Shown in pieces: positions 32,921 to 61,640 of a stretch of DNA of 64,000 nt. The position numbers were made by a program, and so were the translations under genes. The first letter of the stretch is position 1. Each line of letters begins with the position of its first letter. Source of the DNA: an uncultured bacterium (GTDB lineage Bacteria; Verrucomicrobiota; Kiritimatiellia; RFP12; UBA1067); contig CACYCL010000142.1 in NCBI GenBank assembly GCA_902772905.1, positions 15,105 to 79,104 on the forward strand. Direction: 5' to 3'. The notes below the pieces were generated by a model that saw only the letters and a program-made list of their open reading frames with translations, made no database searches and was not told the origin of the DNA.

Positions 32921-32965
32921 ACGGAAGAACACTGAAGCCGCCGCTTGGCGGGCACGGAAATGGTT
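32921..32965. repeat. Copy 2 of the 45-bp direct repeat, about 126 nt upstream of the full-length ATPase gene
   Basis: See copy 1. It is followed by atataatga. Confidence 0.6.
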
Positions 32966-35505: not shown

Positions 35506-35514
35506 TTGTCTAAT

Positions 35515-35539
35515 GTTATCAACATTTTCTGTTGATAAC
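35515..35539. promoter_or_regulatory. Perfect inverted repeat GTTATCAACA-ttttc-TGTTGATAAC (two DnaA-box-like 9-mers) about 100 nt upstream of dnaA; likely a DnaA autoregulatory site
   Basis: TTATCAACA differs from the E. coli DnaA box TTATCCACA at one position. The same TGTTGATA core recurs in the 40344-40445 cluster. An extended -10-like TGGTATATT follows at about 35586. Confidence 0.5.
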
Positions 35540-35637
35540 CTGAATACATAAGTTAATTAGTTTTTTAACATAAGCCGCACATTTTATGGTATATTATTGG
35601 GCGAAACGTCACACTAGACAACAAGATACTTTAAACA

Positions 35638-37035: not shown

Positions 37036-37322
37036 AGAAGCTGTTGAGAACTTGATCAGAGAATGGTGAAAAGTGGTGCAGGTTATCGACAGCGGTGCTT
37101 CGAACCGGATGGCTTTGAACATGTCTCAAATGGCAACCAAGAGGAAATCAACAGTTGAACTCATGCAAAACCCCAACAAACACTGGGTCAAAACGACTTG
37201 TCAACATTGTCTACAGTGTATAATACTATAAAAAATACACTTCATCTTAATAACAGTATTTGATACAATTCACAATCAAGGCTGTAGAAGAAGACTGCGG
37301 CCAGCAAACGTAAGGAGACAGC

Positions 37323-38420: not shown

Positions 38421-38464
38421 TTAAAAGACTGCGACTGAGAAGTGAAAAGGTCAAAGGGTATACC

Positions 38465-39709: not shown

Positions 39710-40347
39710 ACTTTGAAGAATTTCTGAGGCCGGACGAACCGAATGAGAAGCCCGCAGCGGAAGAGACAGATGAAGAGGAAATTCAGCCTGAGGAGCTAGA
39801 TGTACAAAAGGCAGTCGTTGAGGCCTTGGCGGCCGAGAAGGTAGCCCGTGACGAGGAAATAGGAAAACTCAGGAAGGAAAATGAATTTCTTCACAAGAAA
39901 GTTGCGGAACTCACTGCGAAGAATGAATCGATGACTGCCAGCATAAGCAGCATGAAGAGTTCGCTTGACCAAGTCGGGGACGTGCTGGCCAGAAATTCAG
40001 AAAGCGAAACATCAAGCAAAATAGCGCTCATCGACAGAAACATCGAATGTGAAGACCGCTTTCCAGGCGAGACTCGCGACCATGTGCTTGAGGTGATACG
40101 CGAGGCCAGAGACAGGGACGAAGCCGAGGGAAGATGCCGTCGAGCCCAGCTTCTTGAAAGTGTACTCCTGGCAAACGAGCCCAACGGTACGCTTGCAAAA
40201 CGCCGTGCCGCGCTTGAAAAACTTTTCAATGAAAACGCCAACGTCATAAACGGAACAGTGATAGAAGAGCTTGCAAAGCTTGGAATTTCGCATAAAAAAG
40301 GCGAAGAGTATCTATTGGCATCAGAGATTATCAAGAGGAGTTATTGA
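39708..40347 (+). CDS. Hypothetical acidic coiled-coil protein (213 aa)
   Basis: The ATG at 39708 overlaps the upstream stop (ATGA). The protein is E/K-rich with heptad-like segments. The ORF-track N-terminal extension from 39550 overlaps the previous gene and was rejected. Confidence 0.55.
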
Positions 40348-40445
40348 TAAATATCAACATACATACTAACATATGTTGATATTGCTGTTAATAAGTTTAT
40401 AACTCTGTTGATACTGTTTATAACTTTGCCCTTGCAAGTTGATAA
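40344..40445. promoter_or_regulatory. Cluster of five DnaA-box-like 9-mers in a 100-bp AT-rich intergenic region
   Basis: TTGATAAAT/ATATCAACA form the palindrome ttgataaatatcaa at 40344-40357. TGTTGATAT is at 40375, TGTTGATAC at 40406 and GTTGATAAA at 40437. Confidence 0.45.
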
Positions 40446-40468
40446 AATAAAGTCCATAATACTCACCT

Positions 40469-40954
40469 GTGACGAACCTAGATCCAGAAATCTGCTATCA
40501 GATACGTGAAGCTCGCCGTGCGGCGAAGCTATCACAGATTGTAGTTGCGAACGATATTGGCTGCAAGCAGTCGGCGTTGTCGATGTTTGAGCAGGGAGAC
40601 GGAACAAAGCTTAGCGATGAGTCGATAAAGAAGCTTGCCGATAAATTCGGCATAGACATTTCACAAAAGAAGTCGTCTGTCCAGGCAACACCTGATGGAG
40701 CCGTTGTTGCACAGCGAACGGTATCAGAGAGCAAAGTTGGTTTCTGCCCAAACCCTCGCTGTCCGACGAACCATATATATGAGGTGGAGGGCAGAACCCT
40801 TTATCTTCCTGATCGTGCAGCGGCGGATCCAGTTGGAGGAAAGTTCTGCGCAATGTGCGGTGAAGTGCTTATGAAAGTATGCCCGAACTGTGGAGCGCAC
40901 GTGCACGACGGAGGATTCTGCTCGGTTTGCGGAGAGTCGTACATATCGGTGTAA
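40469..40954 (+). CDS. XRE-family HTH transcriptional regulator with a C-terminal Cys-rich zinc-ribbon
   Basis: HTH region is ICYQIREARRAAKLSQIVVANDIGCKQSALSMFEQG and the C-terminus has CPNPRCP...CAMCG...CPNCG...CSVCG. The GTG start and weak RBS leave the start uncertain. Confidence 0.6.
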   Translation: MTNLDPEICYQIREARRAAKLSQIVVANDIGCKQSALSMFEQGDGTKLSDESIKKLADKFGIDISQKKSSVQATPDGAVVAQRTVSESKVGFCPNPRCPTNHIYEVEGRTLYLPDRAAADPVGGKFCAMCGEVLMKVCPNCGAHVHDGGFCSVCGESYISV

Positions 40955-40990
40955 ACCAGACATAAATACACAACCAAGGAGGAGAAGCTG

Positions 40991-42436
40991 ATGGACAAGG
41001 TAAAAAGATACGCGGTATATCTATTGGTGATTGCCGGTTGCGGCGGGCTTCTCTTCGACTTTGGAGGAACAATAATCGGTCCGGCGCTGCCGTACATAGG
41101 TCCTGTAGAGGACAATCCCGGCAGCCTTGGTCTTTTCACGACCGGGCAGGTGTCGCATCTTTCGAGCGCCGTCGTGATGTGCGCCGCGATTGCCTGTCTT
41201 GCAGCCGGCTGGCTTACCGAAAAGATAGGGCGAAAGTTGATGATGCTCATTTCAGCCGCCATAGCCGCGCTCGCATGCCTTCCGATATGCCTAACGGGCG
41301 GGAACTACGCAATGTTCTTTGTCGGGCGGGCCATGCAGGGCGTGGCCGCCGGCTTTATAGGCGTTGTAGTTCCCATGTACCTCGCCGAATGCCTTGACGC
41401 GGACAGCCGCGGCAAGGGAGCCGGCATGTTCCAGCTTCTTGACTTCATAGGCATAACATTCTGCTCAATAGTTGGCCTGGCGGTAGTGCACTGCATAGGC
41501 GCGGCAGACGACACCACGGTTTCCGCCGCAAAGAAGGCGCTTGCCTGGAAGACTATTTTCTGGTCCAGCGCCGTTCCGGCCATTCTGTTTTTCCTTGGTG
41601 CGCTTGGCCTTAGAGAATCGCCGCGCTGGCTGTATCGCCGTGGTCGGAAAGAAGAGGCGCTTTCCGCGCTCGCGGCGAACAACGGCGAGGCGAAGGCGAA
41701 AGAGATATTGGAAGAGATGATCTCAAGTGACGAGGCAGAAGAAGCCGAGAAGGCCAGGAACGCATCAGCTACTGACACTCTCTTCCAGCGCAAGTACGTT
41801 CTGCCGTTCTGCATCTCCCTTGCAGTGCTGATATGCAATCAGGCGATAGGGTTCAACGCCATTCAGTACTTCTCGATCCCGATGTTCATGAAGGCAGGTC
41901 TTACCCAGTCTACGGCAAACGCGGCGAACTTCGTCGTGTGGCTTGTTCCCATTCCAGTGACAGTTGTTGCTCTGAGCCTTGTGGACAGGAGCGGGCGCAA
42001 GACCCTCCTGAAGCTCGGCACTCTCGGCATGGTTGCCGCGTTGGCAGGTGTTGCAACGGTGTTTCTGCTGCTTGAGAGGGGGGCGATGGCCGGCGGCCTC
42101 TTTGCCGGGTGGATGACTGTTGCCGGAATTGCGCTTTTTGTGGCGTCGTTTTCGATTGGTCCCGGAGTGGTGGTGTGGCTTGCGCTCTCCGAGCTGATGC
42201 CAAGCCGCATACGCGCAAACGGAATGTCGATAGCGCTGTTCGTAAACCAAATGGTTGCCTTTGCGATAGCCGATGCGTTTCTTCCATGGCAGAAGGCCTG
42301 CGGCTACGCAGTCGTGTTCTACTGCCTTGCCGGCTTTGCGTTTCTATACTTCCTGACGGCTGCGTTCCTTCTTCCGGAGACCAAGGGCAAGACGCTTGAG
42401 GAAATCGAGGCCTATTTTGCAGGCAAGCGGCGATGA
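40991..42436 (+). CDS. MFS transporter, sugar-porter family
   Basis: 481 aa with 12 predicted TM segments. Motifs GRKLMML and PETKGKTLEEIE are typical of sugar porters. A GGAGGAG RBS precedes the start. Confidence 0.8.
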   Translation: MDKVKRYAVYLLVIAGCGGLLFDFGGTIIGPALPYIGPVEDNPGSLGLFTTGQVSHLSSAVVMCAAIACLAAGWLTEKIGRKLMMLISAAIAALACLPICLTGGNYAMFFVGRAMQGVAAGFIGVVVPMYLAECLDADSRGKGAGMFQLLDFIGITFCSIVGLAVVHCIGAADDTTVSAAKKALAWKTIFWSSAVPAILFFLGALGLRESPRWLYRRGRKEEALSALAANNGEAKAKEILEEMISSDEAEEAEKARNASATDTLFQRKYVLPFCISLAVLICNQAIGFNAIQYFSIPMFMKAGLTQSTANAANFVVWLVPIPVTVVALSLVDRSGRKTLLKLGTLGMVAALAGVATVFLLLERGAMAGGLFAGWMTVAGIALFVASFSIGPGVVVWLALSELMPSRIRANGMSIALFVNQMVAFAIADAFLPWQKACGYAVVFYCLAGFAFLYFLTAAFLLPETKGKTLEEIEAYFAGKRR

Positions 42437-48828: not shown

Positions 48829-49101
48829 ATGAAGAAAGCGATCATAACAGTTGTCGGCAAGGACACCGTCGGCATAATAGCCAAGACGAGCGCGTACCTC
48901 GCCAAGGCAAACATCAACATACTCGACATCTCGCAGACCGTAGTGCAGGACTACTTCAACATGATGATGATAGTGGACTGCGCGAAGGCGCGCCGTCCGT
49001 TCGAGGACGTCTCCGCCGACCTGGCCGAGCTGGGCCTCTCGCTAGGCCTTAAGATTCGCTGCCAGAAGTCCGAGATCTTCGAACGCATGCACAGGGTCTG
49101 A
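48829..49101 (+). CDS. ACT-domain protein, UPF0237 family
   Basis: 90 aa beginning [38 protein letters not shown]. It is paired with the downstream UPF0210 gene. Confidence 0.7.
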
Positions 49102-49105
49102 GCCA

Positions 49106-50473
49106 ATGATAACAGTTTCCGAAGTCAGCGAGACAAACAAGATGATTCTCGAGGAGAATCTCGACGTGCGCACCATCACGATGGGCGTGTCGCTCCTCGA
49201 CTGCGCCGACTCGTCGGTGAAGAAGACGTGCGACAGCGTCTACGCGAAGCTGCTGAGGCTCGCCGGGAAGCTTGTGAAGACCGGCGACGAGATCGGCCGC
49301 GAGTTCGGCGTGCCCGTGGTCAACAAGCGCATATCGATCACCCCGATGGCCGTTGTCGGCGCGTCGTGCTGCCGCAAGCCGGCGGACTTCGTGCGCCTCG
49401 CAAAGACGCTTGACCGCGCAGCCAAGCGGCTCGGCGTGAACTTCATCGGCGGCTACTCGGCCGTCGTGTCGAAGGGGATGACGCCCGCCGACGAAATGCT
49501 CATACGCTCGATACCGGAGGCGATGGCCACTACCGAGCGCGTCTGCTCATCGGTCAACGTCGGCTCGACGAAGACCGGGATCGACATGGACGCAGTGCGG
49601 CTCATGGGCGAGATCGTAAAGGAGACGGCGGCGAAGACCGCCAAGCGCGACTCCATCGGCTGCGCGAAGCTTGTGGTTCTCTGCAACGCGCCGGACGACA
49701 ACCCGTTCATGGCCGGCGCGTTCCATGGCGTCACCGAGGGCGACGCGGTCATAAACGTCGGCGTGTCCGGCCCGGGGGTCGTGAACCGCGTTCTCGCGAA
49801 CTCATGCCGCGGCGTCCCGTTCGAGGACCTCTGCGAGACCATCAAGCGCACGGCGTTCAAGATAACGCGCGTGGGGCAGCTGGTCGCGCAGGAGGCCGCG
49901 AAGCGGCTGGGCCTGCCGTTCGGCATCGTGGACCTCTCTCTCGCGCCTACGCCCGCCGTCGGCGACTCCGTGGCCGACATACTGAAGGAAATCGGCCTGG
50001 AGCATCCAGGAGCGCCAGGGACCACGGCTGCGCTCGCGCTGCTCAACGACCAGGTGAAGAAGGGCGGCGTGATGGCGTCGTCGTACGTGGGCGGGCTTTC
50101 TGGCGCATTCATCCCGGTGTCGGAGGACCAGGGCATGATCGATGCGGTGGACGCGGGCGCGCTCACGATCGAGAAGCTCGAGGCGATGACGTGCGTGTGC
50201 TCCGTCGGCCTTGACATGATAGCGGTTCCGGGCGACACGCCTGCGAGCTCCATCGCCGGCATCATCGCCGACGAGGCGGCAATCGGCATGGTCAACCAAA
50301 AGACCACGGCGGTTCGAATCATCCCCGTCGCGGGCAAGAAGGTCGGCGACCGCGTAGAGTTCGGCGGGCTTCTCGGCCATGCCCCGGTCATGGGCGTGTC
50401 GAAGTTCTCGTGCGCCGACATGATCGCCCGCGCAGGCCGCATCCCCGCGCCGATACACAGCTTCAGAAACTGA
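49106..50473 (+). CDS. UPF0210 (DUF711) family protein
   Basis: 455 aa beginning ...[15 protein letters not shown]. It forms the conserved UPF0237-UPF0210 gene pair. Confidence 0.7.
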
Positions 50474-50478: not shown

Positions 50479-51096
50479 ATGATACGCGTTGCGATAATAG
50501 ACGACCACGTGATCGTGAGGACCGGGCTGAGGTATCTCGTAGAGGCAGATGCCGAGCTGGCGCTTGCCGGCGAGTTCGGCGGCGGCGTCGGCGCGGTCGA
50601 CTTCTACCTTGCCGCGAAGCCGGATGTCACGCTTCTTGACGTTCGCATGCCGGACCGCGGCGGAATCGACGTTCTTCACGACATTCTCGCGGCGGACCCG
50701 GACGCGCGCGTCGTAATGCTCACGACGAGCGACGTAGAGGAGGATGTCTTCCGCGCGATAGAGGATGGCGCGCTCGGCTACGTCATGAAGGAGAGCCCTG
50801 TCGAGACCATCGCGGCCGCGATCCGCACGGCGATGGCTGGCGACGTGTACATGACCGACGACGTGCGGCGCATCTACGCGGCGCGCAAGTCCGCTAAAGG
50901 CCTTTCGGCACGAGAGTGCGAGGTTCTCGCCCGCGCCGGGCGCGGCGAGAACAACCGCGAGATCGCCGCAGCCATGGAGCTGAGCGAGAACACCGTGAAG
51001 ATGTTCATGAAGCGCGCGTTCTTCAAGTTGGGCGCAACTTCCCGCGCCGAGGCCGTTCAGCTGGCCGTTCGCCGCGGCCTGATACCTGCGGAATGA
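50479..51096 (+). CDS. Two-component response regulator, NarL/FixJ (LuxR) family
   Basis: I moved the start to the ATG at 50479 (MIRVAIIDDHVIVRTGL, the REC domain). The C-terminal LuxR HTH is LSARECEVLARAGRGENNREIAAAMELSENTVKMFMKRAFFKLG. The track's N-terminal extension overlaps the UPF0210 gene. Confidence 0.8.
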   Translation: MIRVAIIDDHVIVRTGLRYLVEADAELALAGEFGGGVGAVDFYLAAKPDVTLLDVRMPDRGGIDVLHDILAADPDARVVMLTTSDVEEDVFRAIEDGALGYVMKESPVETIAAAIRTAMAGDVYMTDDVRRIYAARKSAKGLSARECEVLARAGRGENNREIAAAMELSENTVKMFMKRAFFKLGATSRAEAVQLAVRRGLIPAE

Positions 51097-51106
51097 AACA
51101 AGCCGC

Positions 51107-51136
51107 TTGCACCGTTCACCTGCATTGTGGTATAAT
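51107..51136 (+). promoter_or_regulatory. Sigma70 promoter TTGCAC - 18 - extended -10 TGGTATAAT driving the pseudopilin operon
   Basis: The sequence is cTTGCACcgttcacctgcattgTGGTATAATcc, ending 10 nt upstream of the ATG at 51147. Confidence 0.5.
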
Positions 51137-51146
51137 CCACACTGAA

Positions 51147-52331
51147 ATGCGCAAAGCCTTTACACTCGTCGAGATGCTGATCGTCGTGGTGGTGCTCGTC
51201 ACCCTCATGACGATAACGTTCCGTCTCGGCGCAATCAACGAGACAAGTTCGCGGCGCAACACGACAGTCACGCGCCTCCAGAAACTAGAGAACTGCCTTT
51301 CCGGCTACTTCGCCGCGTTCGGCAGCTACCCGCCCGTCGCCCAGCACGGGTCGTACAACTTCTACCTCAGGGTAGACGACCACGGCATACAGAACCTCGA
51401 CGGCGACGAGAACACCAGCATCTTCGGCTGGGACCCCGATGCATTCAGGAGGGGGTCGCGCCCCACCGAGGAGATCGAGGCCTGGAACCAGGTGCAGGCC
51501 GCGTGCCGAGCACAGCCCGTCGGCTGCGCATTCCCGTTCCGCAAGGAGTTCAGCGACTTCGTGACCGCGTGGTCAGACCAGCTGAAGGAAGAGGCGGCCG
51601 ACTCCAAGTCGCTTACCCATGCGCAGAAGTCCATGTTCGCCGCAGGCTTTGACGACGGCATATCGCAGAACATCGGCCGCCACGCGCGATTCAAGGACAA
51701 GACGGACTGGCGCGACGTGCAGCTCTTCAAGTTCGGCTTGATGAGCTTTCTCCTGCCGCGCTACCTCATAATGATGGCCTCCGACGAGTCGCTCTATTCC
51801 GACTACGCGCAGTGGACGGGCAACAACTCGATGCCGTCCGACCCGCTCACGGGGCAGAAATACATTTCATGGCGCAAGGTGTGGGACGACGCGAACAGGG
51901 ACCGCGACACGACCGACTACGCCAGAGTCGCGAACATCCCGTCGCAGGCGGTCTGCGCGCGCTGGATGCCGAATCTGGAGGATTCCGTCTACACGCCGCA
52001 CTCTACGCTGTCGATCTTCGGCGTGGACATCGCGGACAACGAAAGCACCGTCGGCTTCAGCCTTTCGTCGACAGAGGTGCATTCGCCTGGCGGCTACGAC
52101 CAGTCTTCGACGTCTGGCCAGTATGTGCTCGACTTCTGCACGGTTCGCGACGGCTGGTGGGAGGAGTTCTACTACTATTCGCCGCCGCCGTACCAGACGT
52201 ACGTGCTTTGGTCTTCGGGTCCGAACAAGCGCACGTTCCCGCCGTGGATATCGCGCGACAGCCTTGATTCCAAGGCCAACCGGTGCGTCAGCGCCTGGAT
52301 CGAGGATGACATCGTTAACATGAGCCACTGA
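51147..52331 (+). CDS. Pseudopilin-like protein (394 aa) with a prepilin-type N-terminal cleavage/methylation motif
   Basis: Start MRKA|FTLVEMLIVVVVLVTLMTI has a class III signal with Ala at -1, Phe at +1 and Glu at +5. The track's longer ORF from 50916 overlaps the RR gene and was rejected. Confidence 0.65.
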   Translation: MRKAFTLVEMLIVVVVLVTLMTITFRLGAINETSSRRNTTVTRLQKLENCLSGYFAAFGSYPPVAQHGSYNFYLRVDDHGIQNLDGDENTSIFGWDPDAFRRGSRPTEEIEAWNQVQAACRAQPVGCAFPFRKEFSDFVTAWSDQLKEEAADSKSLTHAQKSMFAAGFDDGISQNIGRHARFKDKTDWRDVQLFKFGLMSFLLPRYLIMMASDESLYSDYAQWTGNNSMPSDPLTGQKYISWRKVWDDANRDRDTTDYARVANIPSQAVCARWMPNLEDSVYTPHSTLSIFGVDIADNESTVGFSLSSTEVHSPGGYDQSSTSGQYVLDFCTVRDGWWEEFYYYSPPPYQTYVLWSSGPNKRTFPPWISRDSLDSKANRCVSAWIEDDIVNMSH

Positions 52332-52345
52332 ATGGAGAGTTGAAA

Positions 52346-53023
52346 ATGGTAAATGCAAAGAGCTTTCGTCCGGCTTTCACGCTCATAGAAATGCTGGTTG
52401 TGATCGGCATAATCGCCGTGCTGATAGGCGCCTCCCTCGGCGGCTACTCGTCTATGACGAAGACGGCCGACCGCGCCCGCTGCCAGGAGGTCGTGTCCAA
52501 CGTCGCCACTGCGCTCACGGCGCTCTTCCAGAACGAGGGGTCGTGGCCTAAGCGGCTGGCGGAGAACGGCGCCACCGACGGCAAGCTCGACGAGAACGTC
52601 GCCTACGCGCTTGTCGCAAACGGCCGCAGCTACTTCTCCCTCACGAAGAGCACAGACGGCAGGTCCCTCGGCGGCCACGACAGGTTCGGCATACTCACGC
52701 CGTGGGCGCAGGCCGTCGTCAAGGCGCAGGGCACGGCGGCCAGCAAGGGCTCCAAGGTGGGCACCATGACAGTCGACGACCACATTCTGCACTACGCGCT
52801 CGACCTTGACGGCGACGGCAAGATCCTCGGCGCAAGCGTCGGCGGGCAGTCGGTTGACGTGCGCGCGACGGCCATAGTGTGGTGTGGCGGCAAGGACGGC
52901 GTCATCGACCCGTACCCGTACGCGAACGGCGGAGGCGGCGGCAAGGGTTCGTCGTCGAAGGGCGGCACGCGCAGCGACGACGTGTACAGCTGGACTCCGG
53001 CGCAGACGAGGGACGTGCAGTGA
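52346..53023 (+). CDS. Pseudopilin-like protein (225 aa)
   Basis: MVNAKSFRPA|FTLIEMLVVIGIIAVLIG. A GGAGAG RBS lies 8 nt upstream of the ATG at 52346. Confidence 0.65.
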   Translation: MVNAKSFRPAFTLIEMLVVIGIIAVLIGASLGGYSSMTKTADRARCQEVVSNVATALTALFQNEGSWPKRLAENGATDGKLDENVAYALVANGRSYFSLTKSTDGRSLGGHDRFGILTPWAQAVVKAQGTAASKGSKVGTMTVDDHILHYALDLDGDGKILGASVGGQSVDVRATAIVWCGGKDGVIDPYPYANGGGGGKGSSSKGGTRSDDVYSWTPAQTRDVQ

Positions 53024-53637
53024 AGCGAGGTTTTACCATCGTAGAGCTGATGATGGTGGCAGGGATCATCATCGTGCTAATGGGCGTCGTCACAACGGCG
53101 GCGGCGCAGTCGATTCGCGCCTCGCGCAGCCGTCGCGCCGATGCCCTCTGCAACCTCGTGAAGGCCGGCATGAACGCCTACTATGCGAGGTACGACGAGT
53201 GGCCCGGTTCGATAGGCTCGAGGATTTCGAGCGGTTCGCTCGGCGGCGGCTCCAACAACGAAGGGGCGAGCGGCACCACCGACAACGACAAGTACGTGCT
53301 TTCGGGGAGCGAAGTGCGCAGCTGCGTGAAGGCGCTCGTCGACGAAACGAAGAACGGTTCGCCGGTGATGGACATATCGGGGCTTTTCGTGTCGCGCTTT
53401 CCGGGCGAGATATCTGGATCGGCGAGCGGCGGCAAGGGTTCGTCGTCGGTGCGCGTGGCCAAGGCGACGGGCATGGACTTCATGTCGGCCATACACGGCA
53501 CGCGCACTTCCAAGAAGAAGATGTCTACCTCCGAGATGTACTTCGGCTATCCCGATCCGGAGACTGGCTACTTCCTGAGATTCAAGATGGTCTATTCAAT
53601 TCCCACCGACCAGTTCTCGGTCACTAAGCAGAGGTGA
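53020..53637 (+). CDS. Pseudopilin-like protein (205 aa, GTG start overlapping the upstream stop)
   Basis: (M)KRG|FTIVELMMVAGIIIVLMG. The GTGA overlap indicates translational coupling. Confidence 0.55.
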   Translation: MKRGFTIVELMMVAGIIIVLMGVVTTAAAQSIRASRSRRADALCNLVKAGMNAYYARYDEWPGSIGSRISSGSLGGGSNNEGASGTTDNDKYVLSGSEVRSCVKALVDETKNGSPVMDISGLFVSRFPGEISGSASGGKGSSSVRVAKATGMDFMSAIHGTRTSKKKMSTSEMYFGYPDPETGYFLRFKMVYSIPTDQFSVTKQR

Positions 53638-53639
53638 AG

Positions 53640-54548
53640 ATGAACAGGGCGTTTACACTACTTGAGCTGCTAGTGGTCGTGGGCATCATGGGCCTTCTCG
53701 GCACGGTGTCCGTCGGCGGGTACATGCAGATGCGCCGCGGCATGGAGGAGAAGGGCGTCATACAGGATGTCAACACCCTGATCCGGGCGGCGTACCAGCG
53801 CGCGCAGGTCGACCGGCAGCCTACGGCCGTTGTGTTCTGGAACGAGACGCTTCGCGGCGACAGCGACGTGGACGGGGAGAACATGCTGGTGGTAGGCCAC
53901 GCCGTCGCGATCCGCAGGTCGGGGCGCATAACCGAGGTGAGCTCCAACTTCCTCATCGACGAGTTCGCCGACCTTGCGCTGACGTATCAGACCGACGACG
54001 GCGACGACGGCAGCTCCGGTTCGACCGACGCCGGAATGTACATATATCCGCTTGACAACCTTTCGGACGTGGAGCAGAGCTCCGCGATACGCCGCTCGCT
54101 GGTAGAGACCAAGGTATACGCCCAGGTGCGCACTCCGGTGTACCTGACGGGGCCGAAGTCGGAGAACGTTGCTTCGTCCGCTAGCGGCTCTGGTTCGTCT
54201 GCCGCGACAGGCCAGATTACGGTATATGGCTTCAAGATCAAGAGTTCCAACGGCGTAAGCTGGAAGCCCGGCATGGCGTACGGCATGGAGTTCGCGCATC
54301 TCGTTCTGCCGCACGGGTACTTCTTCGGTTCCAACTACTCCACGTCCACGACCGATCCGATACGGGAAGCTGGCGCGCTGGCCTTCGACGTCGGCAAGAA
54401 CACGGGCAACGGAATGGTGTCTGGCAACCAGGGCGGGCTCATGAGCCGCACGAGCGTGCAGATCACGGCGTTCCGCCTTGGCTCTTCCGGAACGCTGGAG
54501 CCGAAGTCGATTGGAATGTCGGCTGACCCGACGAAAGAGATGAGATGA
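53640..54548 (+). CDS. Pseudopilin-like protein (302 aa)
   Basis: MNRA|FTLLELLVVVGIMGLLG. A GAGGTGA RBS precedes it, and it starts 3 nt after the upstream stop. Confidence 0.65.
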   Translation: MNRAFTLLELLVVVGIMGLLGTVSVGGYMQMRRGMEEKGVIQDVNTLIRAAYQRAQVDRQPTAVVFWNETLRGDSDVDGENMLVVGHAVAIRRSGRITEVSSNFLIDEFADLALTYQTDDGDDGSSGSTDAGMYIYPLDNLSDVEQSSAIRRSLVETKVYAQVRTPVYLTGPKSENVASSASGSGSSAATGQITVYGFKIKSSNGVSWKPGMAYGMEFAHLVLPHGYFFGSNYSTSTTDPIREAGALAFDVGKNTGNGMVSGNQGGLMSRTSVQITAFRLGSSGTLEPKSIGMSADPTKEMR

Positions 54549-55090
54549 TGAAGAAGGCTTTTACATTGATTGAGGTCAACCTCGCCATGCTGATCATGGC
54601 GGGCGGCATACTCTCCATCGTTGGGCTTTACGCATTCGGCTTTCGCGAAAACCGCCACAGCCGGGAGGACGTCGCAGCCACCACGCTAGCCGACAGCGTG
54701 ATATCTCCGCTCGTTATGGCGATCAGCGCGACGAACCTGAAGTGGAGCGTCTTCCGCCAGGAGAGGTTCTTTCCGAGCGAGAGGGCGTGGGGCGACTACG
54801 TGAACAGCAAGGGCGTCGTCACGCAGAATCCCGAAAGCCGCGCCGAGGGAGTGTTCAGCTCCACGATGTCGTGGATAAGCGGCGCCGCGAAGGGTCCGCT
54901 CAACGTAAAGACGGCTTTCCCGTCTGCGGCGCTCAACGGCACGGGCATGAGCTGCGGTCTCGTTGTGCAGCACGACGAAGACTCCGCCGTGGTCAGGATA
55001 TCGTTCAGGGCGACGCGCCTGCCTGGCGAATTGCTGTCCATGCCGCTTTTCTACACCGAGGTCAGGTTCCAGGGCCTGCCGGACGAATAG
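54545..55090 (+). CDS. Minor pseudopilin-like protein (181 aa, GspI-like in size and N-terminus)
   Basis: MMKKA|FTLIEVNLAMLIMAGGILSIVG. The ATGA overlap with the upstream gene suggests coupling. Confidence 0.6.
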   Translation: MMKKAFTLIEVNLAMLIMAGGILSIVGLYAFGFRENRHSREDVAATTLADSVISPLVMAISATNLKWSVFRQERFFPSERAWGDYVNSKGVVTQNPESRAEGVFSSTMSWISGAAKGPLNVKTAFPSAALNGTGMSCGLVVQHDEDSAVVRISFRATRLPGELLSMPLFYTEVRFQGLPDE

Positions 55091-55096
55091 TGTGGA

Positions 55097-55642
55097 ATGC
55101 AAATGCAGAATGCAGAATGGAAGATTGAAGTGAAGAAAGGCTTTACCATAATAGAGTTGCTTGTGGCATCCCTTCTTCTGGGCATGCTCGTGACGATTCT
55201 TACGATGATCTTCAACCAGTCGTCGATAGCCTGGCGCACGGGCGTCGCAGGCGTCGCCGACCTAGACGACATACGCGACAACGTAGCCGAGCTGCGCGAG
55301 GAGGCCGACAATGCGTTCATTGCAAGCCCTGGCGGCAGCTACCAGCTGTTCAGGCACGTAGGCCTGTGGGATTCCCGAGGCAGGCTGCGCGACCGCGCCT
55401 GCGACGCTCCGGGAAGCGAGGTTCAGTCCGAGGGGAGCGGAAAGCTACGCGCGAACATTCTGCGACAGAACCTCTCCGTGTCGGCATCGACCCGGCTTGA
55501 CAGCATTATTCCGTACAACGTCGGCAATGCCGGCAACCCCCGTTCCGTGAAGAACTACTCCGTGAACGTGATGAGCGCCGGTCCCGACAAGACGTTTGAC
55601 ACATGGGACGACATTTGGAGCTGGCCAGATGACTTTGAATAG
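55097..55642 (+). CDS. Minor pseudopilin-like protein (181 aa)
   Basis: ...EVKKG|FTIIELLVASLLLGMLVTILTMIF. Confidence 0.6.
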   Translation: MQMQNAEWKIEVKKGFTIIELLVASLLLGMLVTILTMIFNQSSIAWRTGVAGVADLDDIRDNVAELREEADNAFIASPGGSYQLFRHVGLWDSRGRLRDRACDAPGSEVQSEGSGKLRANILRQNLSVSASTRLDSIIPYNVGNAGNPRSVKNYSVNVMSAGPDKTFDTWDDIWSWPDDFE

Positions 55643-56120
55643 AAGAGGATTCACGCTCGTCGAACTGCTCGTCGTGGTCGGCATGATAGCCGTCCTGATG
55701 GGTGCTATGACTTCGGCCGTGGCGCAGGCGCGCGAGCGCGCCCGCATTCAGAAGGCCACAAACGACGTCAAGGTCATGTCGCAGGCCATTCTCGCCTACG
55801 AGATATGGAACGGCGACGAACTGCCCACGATGGGCTCTCGCGGCAAGGCGGCCGGCGGCGTGGATGCCACGGGCAGCAGCCTCGGGTTCCTCATTGGCAG
55901 GGGCAACGCCGAGGGTGTCGCGGGCGGCAGCGGCAGTTCGCAGCTGCCGGTGCTGCTGATGGCGCAGCTAAGGAGCGGCGGCGCGATTGTCGATCCGTGG
56001 GGTACGCCGTACAAGGTGACAATTGCTGAGTCGAAGGCGAACATCAAGCTCAAGACGGTCACCGGGGCTCTGACTACCGGCTACTGGCTGCCCAACTTCT
56101 ACAGGAACTGGGAGGAGTGA
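55629..56120 (+). CDS. GspG/PulG-like major pseudopilin (163 aa)
   Basis: MTLNRRG|FTLVELLVVVGMIAVLMG, then ...QARERARIQKATNDVKVMSQAILAYEIWNG and C-terminal GTPYKV. This matches the GspG family pattern. The start overlaps the upstream gene by 14 nt. Confidence 0.65.
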   Translation: MTLNRRGFTLVELLVVVGMIAVLMGAMTSAVAQARERARIQKATNDVKVMSQAILAYEIWNGDELPTMGSRGKAAGGVDATGSSLGFLIGRGNAEGVAGGSGSSQLPVLLMAQLRSGGAIVDPWGTPYKVTIAESKANIKLKTVTGALTTGYWLPNFYRNWEE

Positions 56121-56125
56121 CTACG

Positions 56126-59100
56126 ATGAAACGCGGCTCTGCTCTTCTCATAGTTCTCGGCATGTTGTCGTTCATGGTCATCTCGGCCGTGGCGTTCTCG
56201 GCTTTCATGCGCTTCTCGCGACTGCCTTCCAGCTATCTTCGTCGCACGTCCGCATCCCGGCACCTGGTGAAGGCTGCGCTTGCGGAGGCCATAGACATTG
56301 TCGACGCCTCAATCGCCGACAATCCGCATCCGGGAGTTGGCACCGGGGCGATAAGCTACCCGCGCTACTCCGGCGGCAGGGTGATCAACCGCAACTACTG
56401 GCGCAACCACGTCTTCACCGGAACGAACATCCTTGTCTCCGCCGACGAGACCATAGCGACGCTCACGCTTGAGGGGCTTGCGCACCTGCCCCCGGCGCTA
56501 ATAAACGAGGCAAGGTACTACTCGCGCCACTCCACTGCCGGAAGGTGGCACACCTTCGGCTATGACAGCGGGCGATTTGCGTTCTGCGCGGTGGATGTGT
56601 CCGATCACCTCAACGTGAACAAGATTCCAGCCGACATAGGTCGCGGCTCCCTGCCCGAAAACCGCTTCTCGCTCTCGTATGTGTTCGAGAACGACGGTCA
56701 CACGTCTTACACGGTTCAGCCGTCCGCCTGGGACACGTTCATGGAAAACTACGTGTCGTTCGCCAGCGCGAAGGACAACATAGCCACGCCAGCGCAGAAA
56801 GGCAGCTCGGCTTCGTCGTCGTCTGCTTCGGCGTCCAAGCTCCCGCTCGTCTCTATTGCGGACTTGAACCTCGCGGCCAACAGGGATGGCGGCAACTTCC
56901 GCCAGTACTTCCCGTTCGTAGGCTACCTAGAGGGCGGGCAGTCCGACTTTGTCACGAGCCTCACCGGGCCGACCGCCGAAATGCAGAAGCACATGGCGTT
57001 CGTGACCGACGGCTACTTCCCGACGTCTGGCGGCACGGGTGCCGACGACGACTACGATCTTGCCGACGACAAGTACCAGCCGTTCACCGGCGAGAACCTG
57101 AAGGAAAACAACGCAAGGGTGATTCGCGCAATCATCGACAAGTCCACGCCGGGCGCAACGCGCCTTCGCGACTATATCGGGCGTCTTGGCCTTGTGCATC
57201 TCTGGGACTATCTTGACGAGGACAACGTTCCCGTCTCGCTTGCGATTCCATCCGTGGAGCGTACGCCGATGGTCTGCGGCATAAAGCCCACGGTCAGCGG
57301 CTCGTCGATACAGGTCACGATGCGGAAAGAGGACCCGACCGGCAACCAGATCACCGAAGCCGACCTTACGAGCGATGCGTATCCCGGGGCCGAGCCGTCA
57401 AGCATGAGGGTCAAGCCGACGTCTGCGGGTCTGCAGCGCACGGCGAGGTATGTCGAGAAGTATGTCCTTGACAAGACGAAGTTTGTGGCTGGCATTCGCA
57501 GCGGCTCCATCAAGGCAGTTGTCGCCTACCCGTTCCGCCGCGGCAGGGACATAAACGACCCCGACAGCTTCACGCTTGACGGTCATGTCGAGTTCTTCTT
57601 CACCACCGGCAACATGAAGTTCCGCACCGGCGTACAGAGCGACTCCCTGCATCTTGACAGCAGCGCGATACAGGACAAGGCGTACAAGGGCGACGGCGTG
57701 TTCCATCTACCGCTCCAGTCGCAGGGTCTCTCGTTCAGCAATGTAAACGACGAGCAGAGCGCGCTTCAGGAAATCGACTTCATGATAGGCGCCGGCGGTG
57801 CGTCGTCGGACATGATGAATGCCATTGACTCCAACCCGATTCTGACAGTGACCTGGTCGCAGGAGCAGGTGTCGGTAGACCTCAACGAAGGCAACCCGAA
57901 CGCTGCGCCGAACATCGTATGGCAGAACAGCGGCAATTCGCCGACGCGCATAGATGCCGTCTGCGGCTTGCCGCCGCTTGGCGCGGACGGCGTGCCGGAT
58001 GCAACCTTCACGTCCAAGAACGCGCTGCTTGCATATTTGAACGGCGGCGGCGCCAAGCAGGCGCGGCTTGTCATGGCGCTGTGGCTTCGCGTCAAGAACG
58101 GCGACGGCAAGACTGTGGATCTCGTGCCGGCATGCCTTCTCGACGACAAGAACTTCAACAGCATAAACAACTTCCAGTCGATGGGCGCGATCGGCAACAC
58201 GTTTAGTGGCCAGGCGTACCCTGTTATGCGCTTCACCTGCGGCAGCGCGTTCGACTTCTCCGACACGGCTTTCCAGAACATGAACGCCGTCGATGCCACC
58301 GCTGCGCCGGAAGGCATAATGTGCGGCGATCCGCGCTGGAACTGGGCGCCGGAGCACTGGTTTGTTGACGCGAATGTGTCGAAGTCCGGCTGGCTGCAGA
58401 AATGCGGCAAGGGAGTTGGCGTCCGCGACCGCGACATCTTCATGGCGACGAGCGACGCCGGCTACCTGCAGAGCGTATACGAGCTTGCGTTCCTGCCGCG
58501 CCTCGCCGGCGACTTCAGGCTCGACAACGAAATATGGGGTTCGATGGAGTCTCCGGACGACGGGCGCGACAGCTGGGCTACCGATTTCGCCGGTGCGCGG
58601 AATTCCGGGCTTATGTGGACCACTTATCGTCCGTTTGCGCGCAATGGCGTCGCCCGCGACGATTTCGAGCAGATCGGCCTTGTGAACGACGGCGGCGGCA
58701 CGAAGCTGAACCCGTATTCCGACAACGAGAACATATTGATGGCGGCGTTTGCGAACACGCCAATGGACTGGTGGGCGGCATCTGCGAACACCGATACAGG
58801 CGTTAGCACGAGCGAGCGCAAGGCGGCGGCTACGTTCAACAAGAAATACGCCTTCTCGAAGATGAACTCAAATGCTAAGTTCGACTGGGAAGACCTTGAG
58901 CGCGTGGCTGTGGCTTTCAAGGAGCGCATGCAGTCGCAGACGACCGTCAACGGCTGGATGGGAGCGTACAACGAGCTCTGGGCCTTGGACGGCACCGACG
59001 AAAACCGGCTTATGGGAGCTGAGCTTCAGGGCGACACCGACGAGCTTTTCGGAGTTGACCGCAAGTTCCTCTACGGCTACTGGCGCGACTGCTTCGCTGT

Positions 59101-59326
59101 CAAGCAGCAGCTCTTCCTGATCTTCGTGAGGGCCGAGCCCATGATGATGGGCGGCGGGGCGATAGGCCAGACGCCTCCGCAGCTAGGCGCGCGCGCGGTT
59201 GCCCTTGTCTGGCGCAATCCGCATCGTGGCTCGAAGTCGTACTCTGAAGACGGAGAAGGCTCGTCTGGCGCACCTGCCAATGCGCCGCACCAGACCCGCG
59301 TGCTGATGTACAGGCAGTTTGACTAA
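56126..59326 (+). CDS. GspK-like giant minor pseudopilin (about 1066 aa)
   Basis: The N-terminus MKRGSALLIVLGMLSFMVISAVAFSAF resembles GspK (..RG.ALLIVL..L.L...). A GGAGGAG RBS lies 8 nt upstream. It is about three times the length of typical GspK. Confidence 0.55.
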   Translation: MKRGSALLIVLGMLSFMVISAVAFSAFMRFSRLPSSYLRRTSASRHLVKAALAEAIDIVDASIADNPHPGVGTGAISYPRYSGGRVINRNYWRNHVFTGTNILVSADETIATLTLEGLAHLPPALINEARYYSRHSTAGRWHTFGYDSGRFAFCAVDVSDHLNVNKIPADIGRGSLPENRFSLSYVFENDGHTSYTVQPSAWDTFMENYVSFASAKDNIATPAQKGSSASSSSASASKLPLVSIADLNLAANRDGGNFRQYFPFVGYLEGGQSDFVTSLTGPTAEMQKHMAFVTDGYFPTSGGTGADDDYDLADDKYQPFTGENLKENNARVIRAIIDKSTPGATRLRDYIGRLGLVHLWDYLDEDNVPVSLAIPSVERTPMVCGIKPTVSGSSIQVTMRKEDPTGNQITEADLTSDAYPGAEPSSMRVKPTSAGLQRTARYVEKYVLDKTKFVAGIRSGSIKAVVAYPFRRGRDINDPDSFTLDGHVEFFFTTGNMKFRTGVQSDSLHLDSSAIQDKAYKGDGVFHLPLQSQGLSFSNVNDEQSALQEIDFMIGAGGASSDMMNAIDSNPILTVTWSQEQVSVDLNEGNPNAAPNIVWQNSGNSPTRIDAVCGLPPLGADGVPDATFTSKNALLAYLNGGGAKQARLVMALWLRVKNGDGKTVDLVPACLLDDKNFNSINNFQSMGAIGNTFSGQAYPVMRFTCGSAFDFSDTAFQNMNAVDATAAPEGIMCGDPRWNWAPEHWFVDANVSKSGWLQKCGKGVGVRDRDIFMATSDAGYLQSVYELAFLPRLAGDFRLDNEIWGSMESPDDGRDSWATDFAGARNSGLMWTTYRPFARNGVARDDFEQIGLVNDGGGTKLNPYSDNENILMAAFANTPMDWWAASANTDTGVSTSERKAAATFNKKYAFSKMNSNAKFDWEDLERVAVAFKERMQSQTTVNGWMGAYNELWALDGTDENRLMGAELQGDTDELFGVDRKFLYGYWRDCFAVKQQLFLIFVRAEPMMMGGGAIGQTPPQLGARAVALVWRNPHRGSKSYSEDGEGSSGAPANAPHQTRVLMYRQFD

Positions 59327-59343
59327 GGAAGAGGTAGGAAAAA

Positions 59344-60273
59344 ATGAAAAAGGGATTCTCTCTCGTAGAGCTACTCGTCGTCATAGCCATAATAGCCATT
59401 CTCGCCGGTGTGCTGATGTCCACTTTCGGTGGCGGCACCCAGTCGGCGCGCGCCGCGCGCTGTCTCTCGAACATGAAGAACCTTGCGAGCGCGAGCCAGA
59501 CTTATGCGATGAGCTCCTACTATTATCCCCGCGCCGGAAATCTGGTGTACCTGAAGATGAAGGAGGAGTCCGGAAACAGGATCCAGAAGGAGTACAGGGA
59601 GGTTGCAGGCTGGATAAGCTCTAATTCTCAGAACATGTTTCCCTCGACTTCGTACAGCACGCCTGAAGTCATAGGCCTGTACTCAAGCGACAGGGAGGCG
59701 GCCAGCTTCGCCCTCACCAACGGCGTGCTGTGGAAGTATGTCTCTGGCAGCCGCGAGACGTACATCTGCCCTGAACACGCAAAGCAGATGGGCAAGCATG
59801 GCATAACCGTAAACTGGAGTTATCTCATGAACGCCTACTTCGGATGGAACAAGAAGGGGCGCGCCGCATCCAACATCGACAGCGGGCGCATCGAATACGG
59901 GCGTTTGGCAAAGTCCGACAAGACGCTGCTCTTCTCGGAGGTTCCGTTCATGGGCTTCAATTCGTGGGAGCCTTCTGGCTCCGGCGGCTCGACCGACACG
60001 GATGCGATTCTGCAGTACGCTGAAAGCGGTCTCGATTCTGGTGACAAGGGTACGCAGTCCGGCGGCGGTTCGGACGAGGAAATCGGCGTAAACCATAAGA
60101 GCGGCAGGTACTACTCAGCCCATGTGGCTTTCGCTGACGGCCATGTCGAGAAGCTTCGCATGCCCATGAAGGGCAAGAAGCCCGACACATCCGGCCTGGC
60201 CGAAGTGACGAGCTGGCTTTGCGTCGGCTACGACATTTCGTTCGACGGCGGCAGATACAAGCGCGTCAAGTAA
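59344..60273 (+). CDS. Prepilin-type N-terminal methylation protein with a C-terminal H-X9-DG-like motif (DUF1559-like), 309 aa
   Basis: MKKG|FSLVELLVVIAIIAILAG. Near the C-terminus is HKSGRYYSAHVAFADGHVEKL, the DG-containing signature of the PVC-typical family. Confidence 0.65.
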   Translation: MKKGFSLVELLVVIAIIAILAGVLMSTFGGGTQSARAARCLSNMKNLASASQTYAMSSYYYPRAGNLVYLKMKEESGNRIQKEYREVAGWISSNSQNMFPSTSYSTPEVIGLYSSDREAASFALTNGVLWKYVSGSRETYICPEHAKQMGKHGITVNWSYLMNAYFGWNKKGRAASNIDSGRIEYGRLAKSDKTLLFSEVPFMGFNSWEPSGSGGSTDTDAILQYAESGLDSGDKGTQSGGGSDEEIGVNHKSGRYYSAHVAFADGHVEKLRMPMKGKKPDTSGLAEVTSWLCVGYDISFDGGRYKRVK

Positions 60274-60274
60274 G

Positions 60275-61021
60275 ATGTACGCTTCTGCGCCCGCCGCTTG
60301 CCGCGTCATGGGCATAGTGAACGTGACGCCTGATTCGTTTTCGGACGGCGGGCGGTTCTTTTCGTCGGACGATGCCGTGCGGCGCGGACGCGAGATGCTG
60401 GCGGAAGGCGCGGACATCCTCGATATAGGCGGAGAGTCGACGCGTCCTGGGGCCAAGCCGCTTTCATGGAACGAGGAATGGGCGAGGATAGGCCCTGCGG
60501 TCGAGCGGCTTTGCGCCGAGCGGTTCACGATAAGCGTAGACACCTACCATCCCGAAACCGCCGAACGCGCTGTCGCAGCTGGAGCGAAGGTCGTCAACTG
60601 CGTATATGCGGAGCCTGTTCCGGCGATGCTCGAAATCGTGCGCCGCGTCGCTACAGACGTTGAACTTGTAGTTCCCGCGTCGTGCCTGGGCGAAGTCGTC
60701 TCGGCGTCAGACCTTGGGCGCGTATACCTTGACCCGATGATTGGCTTCGGAACGACGCGCGAAGAGGATCTTGCGCTTCTTCGCTCGGTTGGCGAACTCG
60801 CCATGAAGGGCAGGGTGCTGCTTGGCGCGAGCCGCAAGCGCATAGTGCGCGCGCTTGCCGGCGAGAGCGGCACGGACTCGCTTATCGGGGCGGATGTGGC
60901 CATCGCGCTCTGGGCGGCGTCGCATGGCGCGAGCATAGTGCGTGTACACGACGTAAAGGAGGTTGCGCAGGCTCTGCGCGTATGGAGAAGTCTTGAAGGA
61001 AGGTCTCTTGAAAATGAATGA
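60275..61021 (+). CDS. folP: Dihydropteroate synthase
   Basis: GIVNVTPDSFSDGG, DIGGESTRPGA, SVDTY and GASRK motifs are present. Confidence 0.85.
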   Translation: MYASAPAACRVMGIVNVTPDSFSDGGRFFSSDDAVRRGREMLAEGADILDIGGESTRPGAKPLSWNEEWARIGPAVERLCAERFTISVDTYHPETAERAVAAGAKVVNCVYAEPVPAMLEIVRRVATDVELVVPASCLGEVVSASDLGRVYLDPMIGFGTTREEDLALLRSVGELAMKGRVLLGASRKRIVRALAGESGTDSLIGADVAIALWAASHGASIVRVHDVKEVAQALRVWRSLEGRSLENE

Positions 61022-61640
61022 CTTTGGAATGTACCTCGTAATGACGAACCCTGCCGTCGGCTACGTCCGCTGCTGCGAGGCGGCTGTGAGGGCCGGCGTG
61101 AAGATGGTTCAGCTCAGGATGAAGGATGCGCCTCGCGCAGATGTCATTGCCGTCGCGCGCGAACTCCGCAAGATCACGCTTGGCACTGCCACCAGGCTGA
61201 TCGTAAACGACGATCCGGCGGCGGCGGCGGAATCCGAGGCGGACGGAGTGCATGTAGGTCAGACGGACATGCCTGTGGCGGAAGTGCGGCGGCTGTATCC
61301 TTCGCTGGGAATCGTGGGAAAGTCAACGCATTCTCTCGCCCAGGCAATCGCCGCACAGGAAGAGTCGCCGGACTACATAGGCGTTGGACCGGTATGGGCC
61401 ACGCCGACAAAGAAAATACCAGATCCGACACTCGGCGTTGCGAACGCGGCTGAAATGATGCGCGTTTCACGGTGTCCTGCTGTTGCGATAGGGGGCGTGG
61501 TGGACGGTGCGCACGTTGCAGAACTCGCCGCTGTCGGCTTTGCGAACTTCGCCGTCGTTCGCGCCGTGTGCGCCGCGGCCGACCCATACGCGGCGATAGT
61601 CGGCCTTCAGGCCGCCTTCGCCGCGCGGTCCGGCTGTTAG
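61014..61640 (+). CDS. thiE: Thiamine-phosphate synthase
   Basis: I moved the start to the ATG at 61014 (MNDFGMYLVMTNP). Motifs LIVNDD, GVHVGQTD, GKSTHS, DYIGVGPVWATPTK and AIGGV are present. It overlaps folP by 8 nt. Confidence 0.85.
   Translation: MNDFGMYLVMTNPAVGYVRCCEAAVRAGVKMVQLRMKDAPRADVIAVARELRKITLGTATRLIVNDDPAAAAESEADGVHVGQTDMPVAEVRRLYPSLGIVGKSTHSLAQAIAAQEESPDYIGVGPVWATPTKKIPDPTLGVANAAEMMRVSRCPAVAIGGVVDGAHVAELAAVGFANFAVVRAVCAAADPYAAIVGLQAAFAARSGC

Follow-up and report, generated by a model that had tools for sequence, protein, structure and literature searches.

A nine-gene pseudopilin operon with a giant GspK-like protein in gut and rumen Kiritimatiellae

Kiritimatiellae are abundant in guts and rumens, where they degrade mucin and sulfated glycans, but they have been little studied, and to our knowledge their export or adhesion machinery is uncharacterised. 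Here we describe a pseudopilin operon in a 64-kb stretch of contig CACYCL010000142.1 from an uncultured member of this group (the whole stretch is called the window below). Ten genes lie on the + strand between positions 50479 and 60273, a regulator gene and then nine tightly packed genes, P1 to P9 (51147-60273; Table 1), and the codon usage of all ten is GC3-rich, as for real genes of 62% GC sequence. Junctions within P1-P9 span -14 to +17 nt and include GTGA and ATGA overlaps; Shine-Dalgarno sequences are present at the internal genes of the operon and absent at P1, and the ATG at 55629 is most likely the start of P7. An earlier note, made from the sequence alone, had described a LuxR-type regulator and a nine-gene pseudopilin operon with overlapping genes, oversized members of 394 and 302 aa and a GspK-like protein of 1066 aa, and we recovered all ten genes at the same coordinates, with the same sizes and with overlaps of up to 14 nt.

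Table 1 Features of the operon and its upstream region in the window.
Feature	Position	Strand	Description
NarL/LuxR response regulator	50479..51096	+	205 aa; Response_reg and GerE domains
Sigma-70-type promoter	51107..51136	+	-35-like TTGCAC at 51107-51112; extended -10 TGGTATAAT at 51128-51136
P1	51147..52331	+	394-aa GspG-type pseudopilin with a helical insertion of ~180 aa; first gene of the operon
P2	52346..53023	+	225-aa G-like pseudopilin; alternative TTG start at 52340; paralogue of P3 and P7
P3	53020..53637	+	205-aa G/H-like pseudopilin; GTG start overlaps the P2 stop (GTGA)
P4	53640..54548	+	302-aa H-like (GspH/ComGD-type) pseudopilin; alternative GTG start at 53634
P5	54545..55090	+	181-aa I-class minor pseudopilin (PilV/GspI-like); ATG overlaps the P4 stop (ATGA)
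P6	55097..55642	+	181-aa J-class minor pseudopilin; C-terminal SAGPD...T.DDIWS motif; alternative GTG start at 55130
P7	55629..56120	+	163-aa GspG-like pseudopilin; invariant DPWG.PY motif; 14-nt overlap with P6
P8	56126..59326	+	1066-aa putative cap protein of the GspK/PilK class
P9	59344..60273	+	309-aa G-like pseudopilin; C-terminal degenerate H-X13-DG motif (HKSGRYYSAHVAFADGHVE)

A scan of the genomes of GTDB species yielded 75 related loci (labelled L001 and so on), nearly all from rumen or gut Kiritimatiellae bins, some of which are labelled Verrucomicrobia or Lentisphaerae, and tblastn with the window proteins found P1-P9 colinear in about 70 of them; in some clades, unrelated genes stand in the place of P9. 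Clustering of the neighbouring open reading frames (ORFs) placed a protein of ~440 aa directly 5' of P1 on the same strand in 47 loci, and Pfam identifies it as a T2SSF platform protein (E=2.5e-68). A search with E. coli GspF found the platform gene in 48 loci and nothing in the window, and in loci with gspF the stop of this gene directly adjoins the ATG of P1. The clade of the window (L079-L081; P8 55-77% identical) has the order ACT-DUF711-regulator-P1..P9-folP-thiE instead of the gspF start. Because gspF/pilC directly precedes P1 in 48 related loci, the absent platform gene is, judging from this synteny, a rearrangement specific to this clade in an operon whose first gene is normally gspF, and for the same reason the earlier note's idea of a novel stand-alone system fails.

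As that note had observed, no ATPase, platform or secretin is encoded nearby: homologues of GspC/D/E/F/L/M/O were found nowhere in the window (tblastn at E<=1e-3, a Walker-A regular expression and the gspF search), and a prepilin peptidase gene was likewise found nowhere in these 64 kb. Such genes do occur near the operon in single relatives, gspE, gspD and gspO each in just 1-2 loci. A T2SSE ATPase lies 5-9 kb from the operon in L072 and L011, a GspO-like (prepilin-peptidase-like) gene is close to it in L067 only, and a secretin is found 3 kb from it in L080, whose P8 is 75% identical to that of the window. In L080 the region 13273-20168, past thiE and on the opposite strand, holds genes of 399, 220, 196 and 157 aa together with the 657-aa secretin; one of these four small upstream genes is weakly GspM/PilO-like. 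This cluster is possibly a module resembling that of type IVa pili (T4aP), or a shared alignment/secretin module.

The N-termini of the products place eight of the nine among class III prepilins, in line with the earlier note, which had counted eight such signals, four of them with Ala at -1. In a six-frame translation of the window, the pattern [KRNQ]x0-2[GAS][FMY][TS][LIVM][LIVM]E[LIVMA] occurs exactly eight times, always at the N-terminus of P1-P7 or P9, against 0.03 occurrences expected from shuffles. Each of these proteins has a short basic leader, Gly or Ala at -1 (Ala in P1, P2, P4 and P5; Gly in P3, P6, P7 and P9), a hydrophobic residue at +1 and Glu at +5, and Glu5 is invariant across 57-72 orthologues per family. 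Pfam N_methyl matches all eight, above its 21.2-bit cut-off only in P2 (25.2 bits), P6, P7 and P9 (30.1 bits), with P4 at 21.1, and TIGR02532 matches six of the eight, P3 and P5 being the exceptions. Separately, Ala and Gly are freely exchanged at -1 in all eight orthologue families (50 Ala and 20 Gly in P5; 41 Ala and 16 Gly in P9), and this interchange in each family suggests that the prepilin peptidase of the lineage may have a relaxed -1 specificity.

To assign subunit classes, nine family alignments were compared by hhalign with single E. coli K-12 GspG-K sequences, of which only N-terminal segments aligned; P1, P2, P3, P7 and P9 came out as G-like, P4 as H-like, P6 as J-like and P8 as K-like. 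P5 was classed as I/PilV-like from the NCBIfam match of the window protein and from a mixed scan of 131 sequences (P5 subset, n=34). The N-terminal classes run G/H/I/J/K, and the order H-I-J-K is canonical. The composition proposed by the earlier note stands to the extent that G-, H-, I-, J- and K-like members are present and several are oversized; none of them scores above the corresponding curated cut-off.

The P1 family aligned with E. coli GspG at 96% over the N-terminal 62 aa, Pfam T2SSG matches P1 with 17.7 bits (cut-off 21) at residues 320-361 and has a precomputed match in 45 of the 120 listed P1 homologues, and its C-terminus reads DGW..EFYYYSP.PYQ.Y.LWS.GPN..T...DDIV. The AlphaFold2 (AF2) model of P1, from an alignment made of protein-search homologues, has a pLDDT of 88.9, with alpha1 at 7-58, helices at 97-277 and strands at 329-356; none of its 22 Foldseek matches is significant, and nine of the 22 are GspG/EpsG crystal structures. 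P2 aligned with GspG at 96.7% over 108 columns, P9 at 97% over its N-terminus, and P2, P3 and P7 fall in one BLAST cluster. The GspG model TIGR01710 gives 45.4 bits for P7 and 33.4 for P9 (cut-off 88.85), and the profile matches of P7 to major pilins and GspG are confined to the N-terminus.

Among the minor classes, P4 has N-terminal NCBIfam matches to ComGD and GspH and aligned with GspH at 93.5% over 65 columns. P5, at 73% identity the most conserved family relative to L001, has weak matches to PilV (TIGR02523; E=2.6e-5, 24.7 bits, cut-off 52.2), GspI (15.3 bits, cut-off 44.35) and Verru_Chthon B; in the mixed scan, PilV had 35 matches and Verru_Chthon B 31, about the size of the P5 subset, and Verru_Chthon C had 41. 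The P6 family aligned with GspJ at 94% over the N-terminal 34 aa. The curated GspJ model had no match to P6 at E<=0.1 and matched P2 and P9 below its 64.85-bit cut-off, and P6 has a weak PDB match to a T2SS protein G at residues 134-155. Searched against PDB sequences, profiles of the P8, P1, P5, P6 and P7 families matched N-terminal helices or nothing. P9 was also considered as the DUF1559-like, H-X9-DG protein that the earlier note had taken it for, and was rejected as such: PF07596 gave no match at E<=0.1, TIGR04294 scored 16 against a cut-off of 19, and the spacing of the motif is H-X13-DG. One sequence in the mixed scan matched TIGR04294/DUF1559 at E<=0.01.

The N-terminus of P8, MKRG/SALLIVLGML, is hydrophobic in the manner of GspK and lacks Glu5. 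GspK ranks first of the five Gsp pseudopilins in hhalign, with 37-58 N-terminal columns aligned; the GspK model NF037980 scores 14 bits (cut-off 130) at residues 3-59 only, and matches the N-terminus, weakly, in 28 of 38 P8 family members. A D-x4-[FL]-[ND]-x-N motif at residues 157-165, common to the GspK proteins of E. coli and enterotoxigenic E. coli (ETEC) and to XcpX of P. aeruginosa, adds to this likeness, and its D157 and N165 are invariant in the P8 family. The designation GspK-like in the earlier note holds for the N-terminus and for this internal motif; it does not extend to a full-length match or to a match with a GspK structure. In the AF2 model, which is a confident one (pLDDT 81.4, pTM 0.79), a long N-terminal helix (5-63) and a strand (150-157) precede an alpha-rich part (~180-365), a beta-rich part (~380-775) and a mixed region, and the C-terminus consists of three strands, the last at 1057-1065 of 1066. 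Conservation peaks at residues 1-40, 121-160 and 961-1040 and is lowest at 400-640, and with 41% identity to L001, P8 is the least conserved operon protein in that locus, as it is in many others.

P8 had no Pfam match, no match among PDB sequences and no significant Foldseek match among solved structures, with neither 3CI0 nor 5VTM matched; the top weak Foldseek matches are Ig-like adhesin repeat domains (E ~0.04). The enzymatic or adhesin passenger domain that the earlier note had envisaged was identified by none of the three approaches (Pfam, Foldseek, PDB-sequence profile). P8 was also tried as a PilY1 homologue, and this was rejected, as it has no PilY1/PilC family match and carries a pilin-type N-terminus. 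A word-indexed search gave more than 820 homologues, ~1000-1200 aa in length; few of them carry a name, and those that do are hypothetical proteins of Kiritimatiellae metagenome-assembled genomes (MAGs). An exhaustive profile search gathered 1082 cluster representatives (E<=1e-30 for 428), and the only source name met with in the clusters is 'hypothetical protein'. This putative cap protein is a member of an undescribed family.

The promoter of the operon lies in the 50-nt gap behind the regulator gene, where the earlier note had placed it, and is conserved in relatives. An element cTTGCs-N17/18-TGTGGTATAAT, with the -10 ending 8-10 nt before the P1 ATG, occurs in the window and in 12 related loci without gspF upstream, among them L001, L003, L022, L027, L037, L040, L054, L057, L060, L062 and L064. 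Wherever gspF is missing, the stretch in front of P1 has this element, and loci with an upstream gspF lack it; in the window the -10 ends 10 nt 5' of the P1 ATG. This element emerged from the comparison of loci and was missed by a generic promoter scan, because its -35 matches at only 3/6 positions. From the short distance between the -10 and the ATG (8-10 nt), and from the lack of a Shine-Dalgarno sequence at P1, we infer that the P1 mRNA may be leaderless or near-leaderless.

The regulator has the receiver with its Asp and the GerE helix-turn-helix of the NarL/LuxR (FixJ) family (Response_reg 73.7 bits, cut-off 30.2; GerE 60.8 bits, cut-off 23.5); the receiver retains the conserved T and K, the DD pair and, within LLDVRMPD, the Asp that accepts the phosphoryl group. 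Its best NCBIfam matches, MctR and NarL, are both under cut-off, and no equivalog cut-off is reached. Orthologues of the regulator lie directly 5' of P1 in L047, L079, L080 and L081, and in ~22 other loci a NarL-type regulator directly follows P9. Kinase homologues were not detected in the window; 10 loci have a HisKA_3 kinase gene near the regulator, in most of them right next to it. The link between operon and regulator that the earlier note had proposed recurs in other genomes, and the description of the regulator as an orphan applies to this clade only. It is plausible that the NarL-type regulator controls the operon.

Altogether, our results support the view that the locus encodes the filament subunits of a type IV filament machine, a member of the superfamily of type II secretion systems (T2SS) and type IV pili (T4P), and that this module is characteristic of gut and rumen Kiritimatiellae. 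More specifically, we favour, with some reserve, a T2SS-type pseudopilus module in which P5, P6 and P8 would form the cap, P4 the adaptor and the G-like subunits the stem. In agreement with this, the genome report of Kiritimatiella glycovorans mentions a type II secretion system (PMC5148204). In the literature we found nothing on pilins of Kiritimatiellae or on the Verru_Chthon cassette.

Several observations weigh against this assignment. All family assignments derive from the N-terminal 20-110 residues and lie below the curated cut-offs (GspG, GspK, GspI/PilV, GspJ/PilW and Verru_Chthon A-D), and the globular domains had no significant match to solved pseudopilins, either with PDB-sequence profiles or with Foldseek. 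The G-like P7 breaks the otherwise invariant I-J-K gene order. The machinery genes of this genome were not seen in the 64-kb window, and those of relatives score about equally as either system, so that T2SS and T4P are not separable from these data: the platform gives 390.5 bits as GspF and 397.5 as PilC, and the ATPase of L072 and L011 gives 576 as GspE and 554 as PilB. The secretin of L080 scores 141.7 bits as PilQ and 118.5 as GspD, and its cluster, which includes a sigma-54 response regulator and a 123-aa PilA/ComGC-like pilin, has a T4aP-like arrangement.

These last points lead to the strongest alternative, in which the operon encodes the minor-pilin tip of a surface type IV pilus whose small PilA-like major subunit is encoded elsewhere, and which serves adhesion, not secretion. 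P8 would then be a PilK fused in cis to a tip adhesin of PilY1/MshQ size, binding host mucin or dietary glycans or acting in DNA uptake. In L080 the secretin, the four small genes, the sigma-54 regulator and the PilA/ComGC-like pilin all lie 3-10 kb from the operon, an adjacency seen in one genome only; the secretin leans towards PilQ and the platform marginally towards PilC. PilV is a better match for P5 than GspI. The gene order P4-P5-P6-(P7)-P8-P9 can be likened to fimU-pilV-pilW-pilX-pilY1-pilE, and a protein of PilY1/MshQ size with a variable middle, whose top weak structural matches are adhesin repeats, is what would be expected of an exposed adhesin. However, P8 has neither the PilY1 beta-propeller nor the Neisseria PilC domain, its internal motif is that of GspK, and no PilT was seen. 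P1 and P6 have GspG-type C-terminal motifs, P1 follows gspF exactly as gspG does, and it is well conserved, contrary to typical exposed major pilins. We regard the surface pilus as a serious but less probable explanation, perhaps one chance in a few.

Far less probable is that the products are pilin-like lipid-anchored or periplasmic proteins that act singly in solute or glycan binding, comparable to the DUF1559/H-X9-DG proteins of Planctomycetes, and form no filament. The several oversized members, the H-X9-DG-like motif of P9 and globular domains that match no known pilin would fit such proteins, but the strict order of nine genes, the H-I-J-K-class N-termini, the direct joining to gspF in 48 loci, the invariant Glu5 in eight families and the failure of P9 to score as DUF1559 or TIGR04294 argue against them. 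Least probable of all is a self-contained new surface-filament system in need of no ATPase, platform or secretin, for which the absence of these genes from the window speaks, but this absence is limited to one clade, in which a promoter replaces gspF, and in most relatives the operon is joined to gspF. Synteny effectively excludes both the non-filament and the machine-free reading.

In our model of the T2SS-type pseudopilus, a prepilin peptidase encoded elsewhere would cleave the nine products. A platform (GspF/PilC) and an ATPase (GspE/PilB), whose genes would likewise lie elsewhere in the genome, would pull them out of the inner membrane, and a short filament would be built from them. Its initiating cap would consist of P5 (I-like), P6 (J-like) and the giant P8 (K-like), with the pilin-like N-terminal part of P8 and its extreme C-terminal strands as the predicted assembly core and its variable middle of ~800 aa projecting from the tip. 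The H-like P4 would link this cap to a stem of G-like subunits, made of P1 and/or of P7, P2, P3 and P9. The dedicated promoter would give rise to the near-leaderless P1 mRNA, and the adjacent NarL-type regulator probably tunes expression. The most likely role of such a pseudopilus would be to push folded glycan-degrading enzymes through the secretin.

The layout of P8 bears on how tip complexes are capped. By a published rule, the PilK sheet receives its final strand from GspK or CpaL in cis and from PilY1 or MshQ in trans (PMC13533445), and the conserved termini and variable middle of P8, with the last strand predicted at its extreme C-terminus, would fit the cis form of this rule. It is tempting to speculate, as no more than a tentative idea, that P8 founds an undescribed group of giant self-capping tip pilins, in which a GspK/PilK-type core carries ~800 aa of new, rapidly diverging alpha/beta domains that are displayed at the tip of a filament of modular, oversized subunits. 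If so, gut Kiritimatiellae would own a filament that binds glycans or mucin, or selects substrates, and that resembles no T2SS or T4P characterised so far. The operon defines the filament module of the type IV filament machine of Kiritimatiellae and places a large family of 'hypothetical' proteins as GspK-class-like cap proteins of three times the usual size, and P8 provides a very divergent case for the cap rule, in cis or in trans (PMC13533445). The conserved, apparently leaderless promoter and the widespread natural Ala at -1 should be useful for genome annotation in the PVC group.

Other features of the related loci were recorded alongside. A small gene is inserted in the operon, in the P8/P9 or the P7/P8 gap, in L080 (10437-10823), L003, L005 and L006 (ORFs of 120-128 aa), and the one in L080 carries Pfam 23S_rRNA_IVP. 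A protein of ~150-220 aa without a Pfam match follows P8 where P9 was undetected (L045, L046, L058, L059, L072 and L073) and comes after P9 in L050, and a ~706-aa protein, also without a Pfam match, follows P9 in L025, L035, L041 and L063. L012 and L032 both come from MAG CAMOCC01, which holds two diverged copies of the nine-gene operon. Loci including L055, L068, L069 and L073 are in bins named Azospirillum, Lachnospira, Anaerovoracaceae or Clostridiales, names that most likely reflect binning error.

In the window, an ACT-domain gene and a DUF711 gene (48829-50473) lie upstream of the regulator with gaps of 4-5 nt, the regulator gene beginning 5 nt 3' of the DUF711 gene, and this pair also accompanies the operon in L003, L032, L064 and L079. 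A folP-like gene begins 1 nt behind P9 and shares 59 nt with thiE (60273-61640), in the same order as in L079-L081. Because the P9 stop is 1 nt from the folP-like gene and no terminator-like site was found 3' of P9, the transcription unit may run past P9, with the folP/thiE housekeeping genes co-transcribed with the operon. Further away, 33580-38420 is the chromosomal origin region, with mnmG/gidA (33580-35505), dnaA (35638-37035) and dnaN (37323-38420); around it, from 28000 to 42000, the GC content falls to 43-52%, and the cumulative GC skew has its minimum at ~33-34 kb. The lowest-GC part of the window (29723-32795, - strand) holds two ATPase_2/AAA genes of the archaeal-ATPase type, one with a helix-turn-helix, which may be a mobile or defence islet next to the origin. 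Two giant ORFs on the - strand, 2005-14475 (4156 aa) and 14928-23630 (2900 aa), with a 149-aa ORF in between, are probably huge secreted or surface proteins; the former has bacterial TSP3 repeats and Laminin_G_3, the latter Gly_rich_2 and a weak DUF2341 match. Downstream of them, ORFs of 436 and 1077 aa have no Pfam matches.

Among known systems, the best lineage-near curated matches are Verru_Chthon A-D (TIGR02600, TIGR02598, TIGR02599 and TIGR02596), curated and uncharacterised pilin-like families of Verrucomicrobia. P5 is nearest to B, P6 to C, and P4, P7 and P9 to D, and one relative of P8 matches A (E=3.7e-4); the scores are far under the cut-offs (15.8 against 256.5 for C), so the operon products are not members. 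The Verru_Chthon cassette consists of four genes, in contrast to the nine found here. The modular type IV pilins of Streptococcus sanguinis, PilB and PilC, carry grafted vWA and lectin modules (PMC8179133, PMC9934059), and here too extra domains seem to sit on a pilin module, as the helical insertion of P1 and the oversized P4, P8 and P9 suggest; the S. sanguinis grafts are recognisable, whereas those of the operon matched no known fold or family.

PilY1/PilC and MshQ, the ~1000-1200-aa tip adhesins of T4aP and MSHA pili (PMC7541494, PMC13533445), resemble P8 in size, in a gene position right after I/J/K-class genes and in the expected location at the tip. They differ from it in that they are not pilins, have no class III N-terminus and donate their strand in trans, and PilY1 has a C-terminal beta-propeller, whereas P8 has no Pfam PilY1/PilC or significant Foldseek match. 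CpaL/TadG of Tad pili, a minor-pilin-like tip protein of ~600 aa with its own terminal beta-strand (PMC13533445, PMC11870444), shares with P8 the N-terminal pilin-like module, the large middle and the strand at the extreme C-terminus. No relationship in sequence or family was detected between the two, and there is no Tad/TadG Pfam match; P8 is nearly twice as long, and the machine around it is of the GspF/GspE type, in contrast to Tad pili.

Finally, the canonical gspF-gspG-H-I-J-K block, as represented by E. coli K-12, ETEC GspIJK (3CI0) and P. aeruginosa XcpVWX (5VTM), shares with the operon of the relatives a platform gene followed by a G-type gene and then by genes with H/I/J/K N-termini, and it shares with P8 a K-class member that lacks Glu5 and has D-x4-F-N-x-N. 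The operon described here has nine genes instead of five, with five G-like paralogues and a G-like gene between J and K, and its subunits are 1.3-3 times larger; it contains no gspC/L/M/D/E/O, and gspF is lost from the locus of this genome. What the operon encodes is the Gsp/Pil filament module in a lineage-specific form, expanded in gene number and with enlarged subunits, and not a new kind of machine.

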